A stretch of DNA of 64,000 nt, taken from IMG/VR virus record IMGVR_UViG_2667527770_000005, positions 1 through 64,000 of that record; one strand, given 5' to 3'. Source of the stretch: a virus (Duplodnaviria; Heunggongvirae; Uroviricota; Caudoviricetes). This document shows, piece after piece, positions 10,671 to 41,549 of this stretch. Position 1 is the first letter of the stretch. The number at the start of each line of letters is the position of its first letter. The position numbers were made by a program, and so were the translations under genes. The notes beneath the pieces are model-generated. The model was not told the DNA's origin and searched no databases. It worked only from the letters and a program-made list of their open reading frames with translations.

Positions 10671-10687
10671 AAATTAATTAGAGCAAT
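10671..10687. promoter_or_regulatory. C1 repressor operator (16/17 to ATTGCTCTAATAAATTT, reverse orientation)
   Basis: AAATTAATTAGAGCAAT in the divergent ssb/lyz intergenic region. Confidence 0.65.
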
Positions 10688-34140: not shown

Positions 34141-34392
34141 TTATTTTTTGGCTATATCATCTTTCTGATATACCGGATCGTTCCCTTTTGGCAGCTGGAG
34201 GCTTAACTGCCGGTAGTGCCGTAGCCGTTCCATGAAATAGGTGCGCAGGTTCTCCGGCTGCTCACGAGCTACCTGTTCCGCTATGACGGGTATGCTCAAT
34301 CGCTCTTTGTACGCCACACCGCTGGCAGCCAGATCAACGTTAACCTTATCCCGTTCTTCCTGACTTTTAGCTGCAATATTCCAGTCGCTCAT
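34141..34392 (-). CDS. hot: Hot, homologue of DNA polymerase III theta subunit
   Basis: 83-aa ORF; [38 protein letters not shown] resembles HolE. Confidence 0.8.
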
Positions 34393-34743
34393 ATTTAAGG
34401 CTCACATTTCCAGATGGTATTCTGAACGCCCGTGCCGGGCGCGAGATGGGGGTTAGCATTCGCGCTATGCAGATATACAGCTTTAGACTTTCCGTATTGC
34501 TGACAGGCTTTATCTGCGTTTTTTGCAGGCTATCCAAGCCCATACCAGCCATCGGACTGGATGCTAACCTTTTCACCGTCATTGTATTGCACCATTGCAC
34601 ACCCAGATATAGCTATCATCGCACCGACAATACCGCTTTTCCAAAAAGCTCTAATTAGGTCATTCGTTGCCTAATGTCCGAACTGCTAAAGCATCAAAGT
34701 TGCTGTAGAATCACCGCCAATTACTTAAGCCTGAAATAAGTGG

Positions 34744-36302
34744 ATGAAAATGACAAGTATTCAACAACGTGCAGAGCTTCATCGTCAAATCTGGCAAATT
34801 GCTAACGATGTCAGAGGTTCGGTCGATGGATGGGATTTTAAGCAATACGTTCTGGGCGCGCTTTTCTACCGTTTTATCAGCGAAAATTTTTCCAGCTATA
34901 TTGAAGCCGGTGATGACAGCATCTGTTATGCGAAACTGGATGACAGCGTAATTACTGATGACATTAAAGACGATGCCATCAAAACCAAAGGCTACTTCAT
35001 CTACCCAAGTCAGCTTTTCTGCAACGTAGCTGCGAAAGCAAATACCAATGACAGACTGAATGCAGATTTAAACAGCATCTTCGTTGCTATCGAAAGTTCT
35101 GCTTACGGTTATCCTTCAGAAGCTGACATCAAAGGTTTGTTTGCTGATTTCGATACCACCAGTAACCGCCTGGGTAACACCGTTAAAGATAAAAATGCCC
35201 GCCTGGCTGCGGTTCTGAAAGGGGTTGAAGGGTTAAAACTTGGTGACTTCAACGAACATCAGATTGACCTGTTCGGTGATGCCTATGAGTTCCTGATTTC
35301 TAACTATGCGGCAAATGCCGGTAAGTCAGGCGGTGAGTTCTTTACACCGCAGCACGTCTCCAAGCTGATTGCACAACTGGCTATGCACGGGCAGACCAAC
35401 GTTAACAAAATCTACGACCCGGCAGCGGGTTCCGGCTCACTGTTGTTGCAGGCTAAAAAGCAGTTTGATAACCATATCATTGAAGAAGGCTTTTTCGGAC
35501 AGGAAATCAACCATACGACCTATAACCTGGCACGTATGAACATGTTTTTGCACAACATCAACTACGACAAGTTTGATATCAAGCTGGGCAATACGCTGAC
35601 TGAGCCGCACTTCAGAGATGAAAAACCGTTTGATGCCATCGTATCTAACCCACCGTATTCGGTGAAATGGATTGGCAGCGATGACCCGACGCTGATTAAC
35701 GATGAGCGTTTTGCCCCGGCTGGCGTTCTGGCCCCCAAATCCAAAGCTGACTTTGCGTTTGTATTACATGCGCTGAACTATCTTTCGGCCAAAGGTCGCG
35801 CTGCGATTGTCTGCTTCCCGGGCATTTTTTACCGTGGCGGCGCAGAGCAGAAAATCCGTCAGTATCTGGTCGATAATAACTATGTCGAAACCGTGATTTC
35901 ACTGGCTCCGAACCTGTTCTTTGGCACCACCATTGCCGTCAATATTCTGGTGTTGTCTAAACATAAAACCGATACCAAAGTTCAGTTTATTGACGCCAGC
36001 GAATTATTCAAAAAAGAGACTAACAACAATATCCTGACCGATGCCCATATCGAACAGATTATGCAGGTATTTGCCAGCAAGGAAGATGTTGCTCATCTGG
36101 CGAAATCAGTCGCGTTTGAGACTGTTGTCGCGAATGACTATAACCTGTCGGTGAGCAGTTATGTGGAAGCGAAAGATAACCGCGAAATTATCGATATTGC
36201 TGAGTTGAATGCAGAGCTGAAAACCACGGTCAGCAAAATCGACCAGTTGCGTAAAGATATTGATGCGATTGTAGCTGAAATTGAAGGCTGCGAGGTACAG
36301 AA

Positions 36303-36306
<4 letters not shown>
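34744..36306 (+). CDS. hsdM: type I R-M methyltransferase subunit HsdM (type IC, EcoR124 family)
   Basis: 520-aa ORF; AdoMet-binding region and catalytic VSNPPYS (NPPY) motif. Confidence 0.95.
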
Positions 36307-37538
<1,232 letters not shown>

Positions 37539-37659
37539 TTGACCATTGCTACCGACCGGGCCACCTTAACACCCGGTCAGTATATAGACTATTTTTTACA
37601 CGCTGGAAGTCACCATTAACGCCCTTCCGGCCCTTGCCAGACGGCACAAAGGATGCGCT

Positions 37660-40600
37660 ATGACTCATCAAACACACACCATTGCTGAATCCAATAACTT
37701 TATCGTTCTTGATAAATACATCAAAGCTGAGCAAACAGGCGACAGCTATCAGAGCGAATCGGACCTGGAACGTGAACTGATTCAGGACCTGCAAAATCAG
37801 GGCTATGAATTTATATCCGTAAAATCACAGTCAGCGATGCTGGCCAACGTTCGGGAACAGCTTCAGAGCCTCAATGGTGTGATGTTTAATGACAGCGAGT
37901 GGCGGCGTTTCACGGAGCAGTATCTGGACAACCCGAGCGATGGCATTCTGGATAAGACCCGTAAAATCCATATCGACTATATTTGCGACTTTATTTTTGA
38001 TGACGAGCGACTTGAGAACATCTATTTGATAGATAAAAAGAATCTCATGCGCAATAAGGTGCAGATTATCCAGCAGTTTGAACAGACGGGTTCTCATGCT
38101 AACCGTTATGACGTCACGATCCTGGTTAATGGCTTACCACTGGTACAAATCGAACTGAAAAAGCGCGGCGTGGCGATTCGTGAGGCTTTCAACCAGATAC
38201 ATCGTTACAGTAAAGAGAGTTTTAACAGCGAAAACTCCCTGTTTAAGTATCTGCAACTGTTTGTCATTTCTAACGGCACCGATACCCGTTATTTTGCCAA
38301 CACAACAAAGCGCGATAAAAACAGTTTTGACTTCACCATGAACTGGGCGAAATCAGACAACACGCTGATTAAAGACCTCAAAGATTTTACCGCTACCTTT
38401 TTCCAGAAACATACTCTGCTTAATGTTCTGGTGAACTACAGCGTTTTTGACAGCAGTCAGACGCTACTGGTGATGCGACCGTACCAGATTGCCGCCACCG
38501 AACGAATCTTATGGAAAATCAACAGCTCCTATAAAGCGAAAAACTGGTCTAACCCCGAAAGCGGTGGCTTTATCTGGCACACTACCGGTTCTGGTAAAAC
38601 ACTGACCAGCTTTAAAGCCGCGCGTCTGGCAACAGAACTGGACTTTATTGATAAAGTCTTCTTCGTGGTCGACAGGAAAGACCTCGATTACCAGACCATG
38701 AAGGAATACCAGCGTTTTTCGCCAGACAGCGTCAACGGCTCGGAAAATACCGCAGGTCTTAAACGAAATCTGGATAAGGACGATAACAAAATTATCGTCA
38801 CCACTATTCAGAAACTTAATAACCTGATGAAAGCAGAAAGCGACCTGCCTGTATACAATCAGCAAGTGGTGTTTATATTTGATGAATGCCACCGCAGCCA
38901 GTTTGGAGAAGCGCAGAAAAACCTGAAGAAGAAATTCAAACGCTATTATCAGTTTGGTTTTACCGGCACACCTATTTTCCCGGAAAACGCTTTAGGCTCA
39001 GAAACGACCGCCAGCGTATTTGGCCGTGAATTGCATTCGTATGTGATTACCGATGCGATTCGAGATGAAAAAGTGCTTAAATTCAAGGTGGACTACAACG
39101 ATGTGCGGCCACAGTTTAAGTCTTTAGAGACAGAAACCGACGAGAAAAAACTGAGTGCGGCTGAAAATCAGCAGGCGTTTCTTCATCCCATGCGTATACA
39201 GGAAATTACGCAATATATTCTGAATAACTTCCGCCAGAAGACCCACCGTACTTTCCCAGGTTCCAAAGGCTTTAATGCCATGCTGGCAGTGAGTAGCGTG
39301 GATGCCGCGAAAGCCTATTACGCGACGTTTAAACGGTTACAAGAGGAAGCAGCTAATAAATCGGCTACCTATAAACCGCTGCGTGTTGCGACAATCTTCT
39401 CCTTTGCCGCCAATGAAGAACAAAATGCCATTGGTGAAATTTCCGATGAAACTTTTGATACCAGCGCAATGGACAGCAGTGCTAAAGAGTTTCTTGACGC
39501 TGCAATTCGTGAGTATAACAGCTATTTTAAAACTAACTTCAGCACCGACGGTAACGGTTTTCAGAACTACTATCGCGATTTAGCCCAACGGGTTAAAAAT
39601 CAGGATATCGATCTGTTAATTGTCGTGGGGATGTTTTTAACTGGCTTCGATGCTCCAACATTGAACACGCTATTCGTCGATAAAAACCTGCGTTTTCACG
39701 GCTTGATGCAGGCATTTTCCCGCACCAACCGTATTTATGATGCAACTAAAACCTTCGGTAATATCGTCACTTTCCGGGATCTGGAACGCTCAACTATTGA
39801 TGCCATAACGCTGTTTGGTGACAAAAACACCAAAAATGTGGTTTTAGAAAAGAGTTATGCAGAGTATATGGAAGGCTTTACTGATGCTGCCACTGGTGAA
39901 GCTAAGCGCGGCTTTATGGCAGTAGTTTCAGAACTGGAACAACGGTTCCCTGACCCTGCCAGTATTGAAAGTGAAAAAGAGAAGAAAGACTTCGTTAAAC
40001 TGTTTGGTGAATACCTGCGTGCCGAGAACATCCTGCAAAACTATGATGAATTTGCCACGCTGAAAGCCCTGCAACAAATCGATCTTAGCGATCCTGTTGC
40101 GGTAGAAAAATTCAAAGCAGAACATTATGTGGATGATGAAAAATTCGCTGAATTGCAAACAATTCGTCTCCCTGCTGATCGCAAGATTCAGGATTATCGT
40201 TCTGCCTATAACGATATTCGCGACTGGCAGCGCCGTGAGAAAGAAGCTGAGAAAAAAGAGAAATCAACCACTGACTGGGATGACGTAGTTTTTGAGGTCG
40301 ATTTGCTGAAGTCTCAGGAAATAAACCTGGATTATATCCTTGGACTGATTTTCGAACACAACAGACAAAATAAAGGCAAGGGCGAAATGATCGAAGAGGT
40401 CAAACGCTTAATTCGTTCAAGCCTAGGGAACCGTGCTAAAGAGGGCCTGGTGGTCGATTTTATTCAGCAAACGAACCTGGATGATTTACCGGACAAAGCC
40501 AGCATCATTGACGCATTCTTTACGTTTGCTCAACGCGAACAGCAACGTGAAGCAGAAGCATTGATAAAAGAAGAAAATCTCAATGAAGATGCAGCAAAAC

Positions 40601-40776
40601 GCTATATTCGCACGTCTTTAAAACGCGAATATGCCACCGAAAATGGCACAGAATTAAACGAAACATTACCAAAACTTAGTCCGTTAAATCCGCAATATAA
40701 AACGAAAAAACAGGCAGTTTTCCAGAAAATCGTCTCGTTTATTGAGAAGTTTAAAGGCGTAGGCGGAAAAATATAG
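37660..40776 (+). CDS. hsdR: type I restriction endonuclease subunit HsdR
   Basis: 1038-aa ORF; PD-(D/E)xK region [13 protein letters not shown], helicase motif I TGSGKT and motif II DECH. Confidence 0.95.
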
Positions 40777-40855
40777 CCCAATTCGTGTTTTTCTTGCGGG
40801 TTCTTAATTAAACCCGCAAGAGACCGTGGGGTTCCAAATGGCTAATATACTCCCC

Positions 40856-40942
40856 TTACCCATGCGCGACAATGCTGCCAAAAGTGATAGAGAACAGCCA
40901 GAAATAGATCGCGGCCATAATGATTTTGAATGCCGTGTTCAT
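40856..40942 (-). CDS. candidate 28-aa hydrophobic peptide
   Basis: ATG preceded by AGGAG at 7 nt; MNTAFKIIMAAIYFWLFSITFGSIVAHG; lies inside the hsdR 3' untranslated region on the opposite strand, downstream of a C1 operator. Confidence 0.35.
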   Translation of the reverse strand: MNTAFKIIMAAIYFWLFSITFGSIVAHG

Positions 40943-40970
40943 ATCTTCAGCTCCTGTGATTGATTGGATA

Positions 40971-41003
40971 CATGCCGCGCCCCTTGCGGCATGTTTTTAT
41001 TTT
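40971..41003 (+). terminator. rho-independent terminator of hsdR transcript
   Basis: CATGCCGC-GCCCCTT-GCGGCATG followed by TTTTTATTTT. Confidence 0.7.
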
Positions 41004-41026
41004 CACCTTCTCTGTTTTAAAGATCA

Positions 41027-41043
41027 AGATTTATTAGAGCAAT
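41027..41043. promoter_or_regulatory. C1 operator (16/17, reverse)
   Basis: AGATTTATTAGAGCAAT. Confidence 0.6.
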
Positions 41044-41549
41044 TATTGCTGATGAAGAAGCGCGTTTTCATACTCCCTGACCATTAACGTAAGCACGCCG
41101 TGACGCCTGAAAACACGCGCCACTTCAATCTTATCTTCCAGCGCGAACGCAATTTTACTTAGACCAATTTTCTTCAGGAGATCAATCTTTGCTGGACCGT
41201 CATTTCTGTCATCGGTGGCAGGACGCATAGATAGCAAAGGCTCAGCCCCATTTGTTACGTGCTTACGCAACCAGGCTCGTGTTTTATCCCTGGCTATCTC
41301 ACAGCGCCCGGTTACAAACCAGAGGGTGTAAATGCCGGACAACTGGCGCACCATATCAATAACTGGAGTGATGGGAGCATCAGTGTCACAGGCAAGGTTA
41401 AACTCGTTCCAGTGCTCTGTTAATGCACCTTTGCCAGGTGGTGGAAGTAAATGCAGCCTGTCTTCCGTTGCCTCTGATATCGTCCCATCAATATCTACTA
41501 TGACGATGTACGGACGTTCCTGGTGTGCGTGTTTATTGAAAATACTCAA
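41043..41549 (-). CDS. HAD-superfamily phosphatase-like protein
   Basis: 168-aa ORF; motif I VIVDIDGTIS (DxDGT); TTG start with GAGGAGGG RBS. Confidence 0.6.
   Translation of the reverse strand: MSIFNKHAHQERPYIVIVDIDGTISEATEDRLHLLPPPGKGALTEHWNEFNLACDTDAPITPVIDMVRQLSGIYTLWFVTGRCEIARDKTRAWLRKHVTNGAEPLLSMRPATDDRNDGPAKIDLLKKIGLSKIAFALEDKIEVARVFRRHGVLTLMVREYENALLHQQ

Follow-up and report, generated by a model that had tools for sequence, protein, structure and literature searches.

Is a short open reading frame (ORF) that lies opposite the 3' flank of a restriction gene in a P1-like phage-plasmid a gene in its own right, and does its overlap with the restriction gene have a function? The question was raised by the IMG/VR virus record IMGVR_UViG_2667527770_000005, of which positions 1 to 64,000 (64,000 nucleotides, nt; hereafter the window) were analyzed. 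A sequence-only reading of this stretch had described a 28-codon ORF on the strand opposite hsdR, between the hsdR stop codon and the hsdR terminator and downstream of a C1 operator, and had proposed a type I toxin-antitoxin (TA)-like arrangement, in which a membrane toxin or lysis modulator is expressed on derepression. Comparison of the window with P1 and its relatives gave a different answer. We consider it likely, with some reserve, that the ORF is a genuine backbone gene of P1 (Punavirus) for a small, uncharacterized membrane peptide, as judged from its sequence features, its conservation, and its pattern of variation. The antisense overlap with hsdR arose as a side effect of a cassette swap and is not a selected regulatory pair, because the inverted cassette left a backbone hairpin in a position to terminate hsdR read-through.

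The small ORF and its leader

The ORF occupies positions 40856..40942 on the minus strand (ATG..TAA) and encodes MNTAFKIIMAAIYFWLFSITFGSIVAHG. The predicted peptide has a short N-terminus with a lysine at position 6 (K6), followed by a hydrophobic stretch of approximately 20 uncharged residues, and the window copy carries the replacement G23S with respect to the P1 consensus peptide. The best 19-residue stretch has a Kyte-Doolittle (KD) value of 2.08 and no charged residues, and by the hydrophobicity of this stretch the ORF ranks second among the 249 ATG-initiated ORFs of 22–40 amino acids (aa) in the window. The ORF for a single-helix hydrophobic peptide is thus confirmed at its position. From the composition, we infer that the product would be a 28-residue single-pass membrane peptide; its orientation is probably N-in, for which K6 is a weak signal.

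The Shine-Dalgarno (SD) sequence AGGAG is found at 40951..40955 on the minus strand. The motif had been recognized correctly, but its distance from the ATG, previously given as 7 nt, was measured as 8 nt. Across approximately 150 loci, the SD region (CAGGAGCTGA) is invariant, and the arrangement of AGGAG, 8 nt, and ATG occurs without variation. Among the ORFs of 22–40 aa in the window, two have AGGAG located 5–10 nt upstream, the small ORF being one of them. Combinations of SD and ATG were counted at 14 sites in the window, of which about five start long ORFs, so the combination alone is approximately 40% predictive. A translatable small hydrophobic ORF is supported by these sequence features. 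The equivalent ORF in P1 (NC_005856, 84392..84478) is unannotated there. P1 is among the most thoroughly annotated phages and ORFs down to 37 codons are included in its record, yet the reference annotation omits this one.

The predicted peptide resembles small single-pass membrane proteins of enterobacteria and phages, for which KdpF, MgtR, PmrR, and YohP-type small ORFs were taken as the comparison set, in its length of 28 aa, its one uncharged hydrophobic helix, its strong SD, and its place as a short operon cistron. Unlike them, it has no family similarity (Pfam, NCBIfam, PHROGs, PADLOC) and is confined to P1-like elements. Lysis-cassette proteins are encoded beside endolysin or spanin genes, have at least one transmembrane domain and a charged C-terminal tail, and are typically longer than 60 aa. 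No membership in a holin, antiholin, or lysis cassette was found for the ORF: its neighbors are pap, pmgS, and pmgT or hsdR, its product has 28 aa, and the C-terminus (..AHG) is without a charged tail.

The operator proposed upstream of the ORF proved to be a known one. The site at 41027..41043 on the minus strand (ATTGCTCTAATAAATCT), which abuts the pap stop codon, was tested against the 17-bp asymmetric C1 consensus ATTGCTCTAATAAATTT and matched it with one mismatch, at a position homologous to P1. It lies 85 nt from the ATG of the ORF, as had been stated, and aligns with the site that the P1 record annotates as OpmgT (formerly Op88). In the window, 15 matches to the operator were found at no more than three mismatches, compared with 0.53 expected from shuffled sequences. 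Given the position of the ORF downstream of a genuine C1 operator, its expression on derepression, which was part of the original proposal, would be expected. Other C1-operator-like sites in the window include one at 10671 and the close or overlapping pairs 26885/26968, 43119/43168, and 57106/57117; the pair 43119/43168 corresponds to the Op86a/b position, upstream of pmgR.

Two predicted sigma-70 promoters on the minus strand were transferred from the P1 annotation by alignment: P2pmgT (−35 TTGCTC at 41037-41042, −10 TAAAAC at 41014-41019) and P1pmgT (−35 TTGATC at 41022-41027, −10 GAAAAT at 40999-41004). They overlap or abut the operator (40999..41042 in total) and point toward the ORF and pmgT. 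Their hexamers are conserved in the window; our own promoter scan flagged a different, weak candidate at 41071..41042.

A GC-rich hairpin can be formed on both strands (40970..41004), with a stem of 10 bp in the window. In P1 (2614-2656 of locus L001), the stem has 15 bp although P1 is without hsdR, and the hairpin is therefore a P1-backbone element and not a part of the hsd cassette. On the plus strand, the hairpin (40970-40994) and the adjoining TTTTTATTTT are terminator-like for transcripts arriving from hsdR. On the minus strand, it has no U-run and is located where the transcript predicted from the pmgT promoters would begin, or close to that point. Its stems are invariant and its loop carries a 2-nt indel. 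When the sense leader was folded, the 5' stem-loop was the only stable structure, the SD was largely unpaired, and the z-score against shuffled sequences was −0.17. The hairpin may act as a 5' stabilizer, as a boundary insulator for cargo in either orientation, as both, or it may be a relic. The predicted −10 hexamer of P1pmgT falls on the A/T run that provides the U-tract of the hairpin.

The pmgT operon and the inverted hsd cassette

From position 40852 onward, the window is 94–99% identical to P1, P7, SJ46, RCS47, and other Punavirus records. When the window, P1, SJ46, and phi456 were aligned, the operator, the promoter hexamers, the hairpin, the SD, and the ORF were found in all of them. 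By this alignment, the operator, hairpin, SD, and ORF are the conserved leader of the C1-repressed pmgT operon of P1. The TAA of the ORF in P1 is located 9 nt before the ATG of pmgT and overlaps the pmgT SD, which makes the ORF the first cistron of a compact pmgT-pmgU-pmgV unit; the same distance, 9–10 nt, was measured in 57 of 83 IMG/VR loci.

In the window, the homology to P1 ends 4 nt past the stop codon of the ORF, where TAAGGGG is followed by AGTATATT instead of the GATGCATGAAAGGC of P1. The junction lies at 40851..40852 (TAAGGGG followed by AGTAT on the minus strand), with the cassette up to 40851 and the P1 backbone from 40852 onward. The cassette is an inverted hsdMSR set of approximately 6.45 kb (~34395-40851), which stands in place of upfO-upfN-upfM-pmgV-pmgU-pmgT. 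At its other flank, P1 homology resumes with hot (34141-34392), beyond which lie humD, phd, and doc. The gene nearest to the ORF is hsdR (37660..40776, plus strand, 1038 codons, stop codon at 40774-40776), which is convergent with it. The HsdR protein gave a full-length match to HsdR of EcoR124I (type IC, PDB 2W00; 2274 bits, residues 1-1038).

The window therefore has no co-oriented pmgT-pmgU-pmgV downstream of the ORF but the inverted hsdMSR instead. It resembles the C1-controlled Op88-pmgT-pmgU-pmgV unit of P1 in its operator, predicted promoters, position after pap, hairpin, SD, and ORF, at 94–99% identity, and differs from it in the lack of pmgT, pmgU, pmgV, and upfM, upfN, upfO, with the type IC cassette in their place. 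As this comparison shows, the operator, predicted promoter, leader, and ORF were orphaned by the swap and form a unit that converges on hsdR. Among 144 loci, the ORF is followed by pmgT in 94 and by a convergent hsdR in 50; the hsd type is annotated, for example, in phi456 and in the plasmid pD72-mcr1. The hsd-type loci probably all descend from a single insertion event. The stretch from pmgT to humD is one of eight variable regions recognized in P1-like phage-plasmids (PMC9603915), and pap, pmgT, pmgU, and pmgV scored as non-essential in CRISPR interference (CRISPRi) experiments (PMC10695390).

The same hsd cassette is also carried by approximately 280 IncF-type conjugative plasmids, together with a P1 backbone remnant of just 96 bp that IS1 has cut off. 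This remnant corresponds to 40935-40840 of the window (6001-6096 in L004, plasmid pU14A_A) and contains the ORF without its start. These plasmids, which carry the cassette with 96 bp of backbone, explain a note in the P1 GenBank record, in which the segment is said to share 96–98% identity with what follows the R124/3 and EcoDXXI hsd loci. Because the IncF cassettes retain a P1 backbone remnant abutting IS1, the sequences imply that R124 and EcoDXXI, the classic type IC systems of plasmids, were carried by a P1-like element in the past. The window shares with the EcoR124I and EcoDXXI loci the full-length HsdR match and the downstream P1 segment (96–98% identical); it differs from them in that its cassette resides in a P1-like phage-plasmid with the full backbone leader, whereas the IncF copies keep 96 bp.

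Selection on the peptide

In all 144 complete copies the 28-codon core of the ORF is intact, free of nonsense and frameshift variants; two short versions are contig ends and one locus (L054) is rearranged, and these are outside the 144. No relatives outside P1-like elements were found with a protein word index, with tblastn against 50,697 phage records, or with an exhaustive HMMER search of 1.84 billion representatives. Scans of the peptide against Pfam, PHROGs, NCBIfam, and PADLOC gave no meaningful match, and the Rfam search gave sub-threshold noise only. A Pap-based contig search for loci found two. The peptide sequence was not found in the literature searched, in which papers on Op88 and pmgT gave context only.

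Synonymous and nonsynonymous variants were counted in pooled form on 84 and then on 144 loci. Under a six-frame control the pooled counts did not set the sense frame apart from some closed frames; the informative comparison is the one in which loci are split by downstream context. The upstream backbone gene pap (41043..41549, minus strand), which encodes an HAD/PNKP-type phosphatase, served as the internal control. In the pmgT class (n = 94), the consensus peptide is kept in 91 loci and the common polymorphisms are all synonymous (four synonymous, none nonsynonymous; binomial p = 0.002). The ratio of nonsynonymous to synonymous diversity (piN/piS) is 0.03 for the ORF and 0.12 for pap of the same elements. 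Three nonsynonymous ORF variants were seen in this class, every one a singleton. The remaining open frames gave piN/piS values of 1.2–12, and the sole other low ratio was obtained in a stop-containing frame. In the hsd class (n = 50), the consensus peptide is kept in 20 loci, the common polymorphisms are three synonymous and four nonsynonymous, and piN/piS is 0.50 for the ORF and 0.14 for pap. The common replacements there are G23S (17 loci, the window included), A10T (11), G28R (5), and G22D (4). We read these patterns as purifying selection on the predicted peptide in its native operon, with relaxed constraint after the cassette swap; the apparent drift of the ORF sequence in hsd-type elements suggests that it matters less there.

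Several observations weigh against a selected membrane peptide. The synonymous-codon score of the ORF is gene-like (4.13 bits; true in-frame windows average 2.27 and short ORFs −1.19), but two other frames of the segment score 3.2–3.4 bits, and the codon score discriminates poorly. The pooled counts are 7 synonymous versus 10–13 nonsynonymous variant types (pN/pS 0.40–0.52), and in the pooled six-frame control the sense frame does no better than a closed one. About 20 variant types underlie the selection tests, with only four common polymorphic sites in the pmgT class. The difference between the classes is not significant by event counts (common nonsynonymous 0/4 vs 4/7) and is significant on locus counts only, where loci share ancestry. 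The family is shallow, as all relatives retrieved by the word index, tblastn, and HMMER are at least 92–93% identical. Polar or charged residues occur in the helix of some variants (G22D, L16Q, G23D, I24S), and stop-loss variants carry unrelated tails of 9–37 residues. The ORF is dispensable for maintenance, being disrupted in the 99-kb P1-like contig L054. Finally, the terminator-like hairpin faces against the pmgT operon even in P1, where it has no convergent gene.

Part of this evidence would suit the view that the segment is a non-coding 5' leader of the pmgT operon, orphaned in the window, and that the ORF is fortuitous, which we regard as unlikely. With all copies at least 92–93% identical, intactness of the frame weighs little, and the pooled test, in which the closed frame equals the sense frame, does not discriminate. 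Sites with SD and ATG are spurious about half of the time in the window, and Lobocka et al. left the ORF unannotated in P1 despite annotating ORFs of 37 codons. The hairpin, the SD, and the first 27 nt of the ORF are the most invariant parts, which leaves room for constraint at the RNA level. A non-coding leader is, however, hard to reconcile with the pmgT class, in which four of four common polymorphisms are synonymous (p = 0.002), the piN/piS of 0.03 is below that of pap, and the other open frames are at 1.2 or above. In addition, an SD, an ATG, a 20-residue uncharged stretch, and gene-like codons are jointly rare among the short ORFs of the window, and cargo junctions concentrate at the stop codon and not across the leader.

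These junctions were mapped in approximately 150 loci. Independent cargo replacements and deletions break at the stop codon of the ORF or no more than 5 nt after it, and one locus breaks inside the ORF. At least five independent variants (L151, L154, L155, L156, and L157) are joined directly after CATGGGTA, inside the TAA (40856-40858). They are deletions into same-strand cargo, namely inside pmgT, just upstream of humD, or into Ead/DUF551-type cargo, and they lengthen the peptide to 37–65 aa. Their partner sites have only a common 'TA' microhomology, and the downstream sequences are all different. The hsd junction is located 5 nt beyond this breakpoint. No insertion sequence (IS) or recombinase site was recognized at the stop-codon breakpoint. 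The clustering is consistent with selection to retain the whole ORF, and the nucleotide-exact reuse of a single breakpoint suggests a mechanistic hot spot. If the ORF is a gene, it would give a left boundary to a major cargo-exchange region of P1-like phage-plasmids, which takes up restriction systems and other accessory genes. In the locus that breaks inside the ORF (L054, IMGVR_UViG_2695420521_000002), AT-rich foreign DNA is joined after codon 19, approximately 57 nt into the ORF, and a gene for a protein exceeding 600 aa (MSMLRLNKTYKQQRFRYSALARCVAWANISVQ...), which may be adhesin-like, follows this DNA.

The position of the stop codon also bears on the alternative of a translated leader or coupling ORF, in which the peptide itself would be functionless and translation would serve ribosome loading, transcript protection, or coupling to the cargo. 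The stop lies 9–10 nt from the pmgT ATG and overlaps the pmgT SD, conservation is highest in the SD, start, and early codons of the ORF, and stop-loss deletions are tolerated, with the extended ORFs of L154 and L156 overlapping the next gene by 4 nt. Constraint is relaxed in the hsd class, which has no co-oriented gene downstream. Nevertheless, the peptide is identical in 91 of the 94 pmgT-class loci despite common synonymous variation, and a clean transmembrane-like segment would be unneeded for coupling; we thus consider a coupling ORF improbable.

For a genuine membrane-peptide gene, the following course of events may be envisaged. The ORF would be the promoter-proximal cistron of an early unit under C1 repression at Op88, the promoters being predicted ones. 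In lysogens, C1 would repress these promoters and the peptide would be silent; antisense hsdR RNA possibly adds to this silencing. On infection or induction, a transcript would start at or just before the stem-loop with an accessible SD, and the ORF would follow about 50 nt later. The 28-aa peptide would be translated and inserted in the inner membrane, and in P1 the ribosomes would proceed from the ORF into pmgT. Our best guess for its role is a non-essential small inner-membrane modulator of early lytic development. As the first cistron behind Op88, the peptide would enlarge the C1 regulon by one gene.

The overlap with hsdR and other features of the locus

Directly after the hsdR stop codon, the cassette carries a 12-bp GC-rich hairpin of its own (40792..40821; z = −2.8). 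A T-run precedes its stem on the plus strand, but as neither strand has one after the stem, the hairpin does not qualify as a canonical terminator. This hairpin moves with the hsd cassette into the IncF plasmids, where the cassette match reaches 40935 in L004. No convincing plus-strand terminator-like site was found downstream of hsdR besides the backbone hairpin (40970-40994), and no convincing minus-strand terminator was found between the ORF and the body of hsdR in the terminator scan. Read-through from hsdR would therefore cover the ORF as far as the backbone hairpin. In the opposite direction, the transcript from the Op88 promoters would run antisense into hsdR with nothing co-oriented downstream, as the 40792-40821 hairpin lacks a U-run and no convincing terminator on the minus strand comes after it. 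The antisense geometry noted earlier thus holds at the sequence level, from the hsdR stop to the hairpin at 40970-40994, but what was taken for the hsdR terminator is a backbone element that has a 15-bp stem in P1.

Whether this geometry has acquired a function was considered for the hsd-type third of P1-like phage-plasmids. There is a slim chance that the Op88 promoter, leader, and ORF were co-opted there as a repressor-gated convergent unit that limits hsdR. If this were true, antisense firing would delay or lower HsdR when C1 is absent and the accumulation of C1 would release hsdR, so the immunity repressor would be the timer of a 'methylate first, restrict later' program for the type IC system. 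It is highly doubtful that the hsd-type unit is mainly such a C1-gated convergent promoter, lowering HsdR without C1, with the peptide incidental. The promoter and operator are kept intact facing hsdR, no minus-strand terminator intervenes between the ORF and the body of hsdR, and the relaxed constraint on the peptide, with the promoter and SD kept, fits a shift of function. Restriction alleviation of EcoR124I is independent of ClpXP, with its mechanism and the control of establishment described as unresolved (PMC3874165), which would leave a place for such a switch. The proposal is, however, purely a geometric one; the orientation has no independent weight if there was, as is probable, a single hsd insertion event; and in IncF plasmids the same cassette functions although IS1 has severed the Op88 promoter from it.

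The TA-like pair would consist of a membrane toxin mRNA neutralized by the hsdR 3' untranslated region (UTR) or by a small RNA that ends at the hairpin and T-run. Type I toxins, hydrophobic and shorter than 60 aa, were used for comparison, and the peptide falls within their range of size and hydrophobicity. As in hok/sok, tisB/istR, ibs/sib, and shoB/ohsC, there is a short hydrophobic ORF and, in the window, a potential opposite-strand transcript that would be fully complementary and end at an intrinsic terminator. The strong terminator-like hairpin and U-run are antisense to the 5' end of the ORF and conserved even in P1, and read-through from hsdR would span the entire ORF. What sets the ORF apart from these systems is that it has neither a dedicated antisense gene nor a leader that sequesters the SD, that its pairing is not conserved, and that a protein repressor controls it directly. 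No sigma-70-like antisense promoter was found on the plus strand at 40600-41300 of the window or at 2300-2800 of the P1 locus L001, in a scan that a weak or non-consensus promoter could escape. The leader does not sequester the SD and is unstructured overall (z = −0.17), and Rfam is without a match. A convergent gene is lacking in two thirds of the loci, 94 of 144 having a co-oriented pmgT. The cassette is secondary and present in only 50 of 144 loci, so the conservation of the ORF cannot depend on hsdR antisense RNA. A toxin restrained by hsdR predicts the opposite of the relaxed constraint seen where the hsdR partner exists (piN/piS 0.50 vs 0.03). Stop-loss and disrupted variants persist, as does the IS1 truncation in IncF plasmids, and direct C1 repression already explains silence in lysogens, which leaves an RNA antitoxin unneeded. 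With no antisense promoter found, an open SD, an unconserved pairing, and constraint that is relaxed beside hsdR, the type I TA-like interpretation is very improbable and was abandoned, and the window locus should be left out of counts of new TA loci.

Public records name the ORF 'hypothetical' or 'putative membrane protein' (automatic annotation), mostly in a 44-aa form that occurs in more than 1000 contigs. Examples are AMR60016.1 and WP_001426503.1, and the form is annotated in SJ46 (L002 2505-2639), phi456 (L003 4657-4791), and JL22. As a real product this form was rejected: its ATG lies inside the hairpin and has no SD, and just 111 of 151 loci have the extension open, whereas the 28-codon core is open throughout. 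The 44-codon extension (40943-40990 in the window) is frameshifted by the 2-nt loop indel in 40 of the 151 loci, and the window has the GG insertion. The 44-aa annotation is probably 16 codons too long. Two plus-strand ORFs across the segment (40826-40963 and 40920-41087) were also rejected, as they have no SD, vary in length between P1, SJ46, and the window, and are dominated by nonsynonymous changes.

The other genes of the cassette are hsdM (34744-36306, plus strand) and hsdS (36303-37538, plus strand), which belong to the same EcoR124I-type set as hsdR. The gene replaced next to the ORF, pmgT (L001 1566-2495), is annotated in P1 with a 'putative morphogenetic function'. PmgT has thousands of relatives, 60–73% identical, in the lambdoid-type early regions of prophages from Klebsiella, Citrobacter, Pantoea, and Edwardsiella (e.g., L158-L161), and some of them are labelled ASCH-domain proteins by NCBI. 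A conserved pair of PmgT and the small ORF was not upheld, as the PmgT homologues in other prophages are preceded by ordinary genes of 74–173 aa; they sit in lambdoid-type early operons. Because of these early-region relatives and the non-essentiality of pmgT in the CRISPRi data, the 'morphogenetic' label of PmgT looks doubtful.

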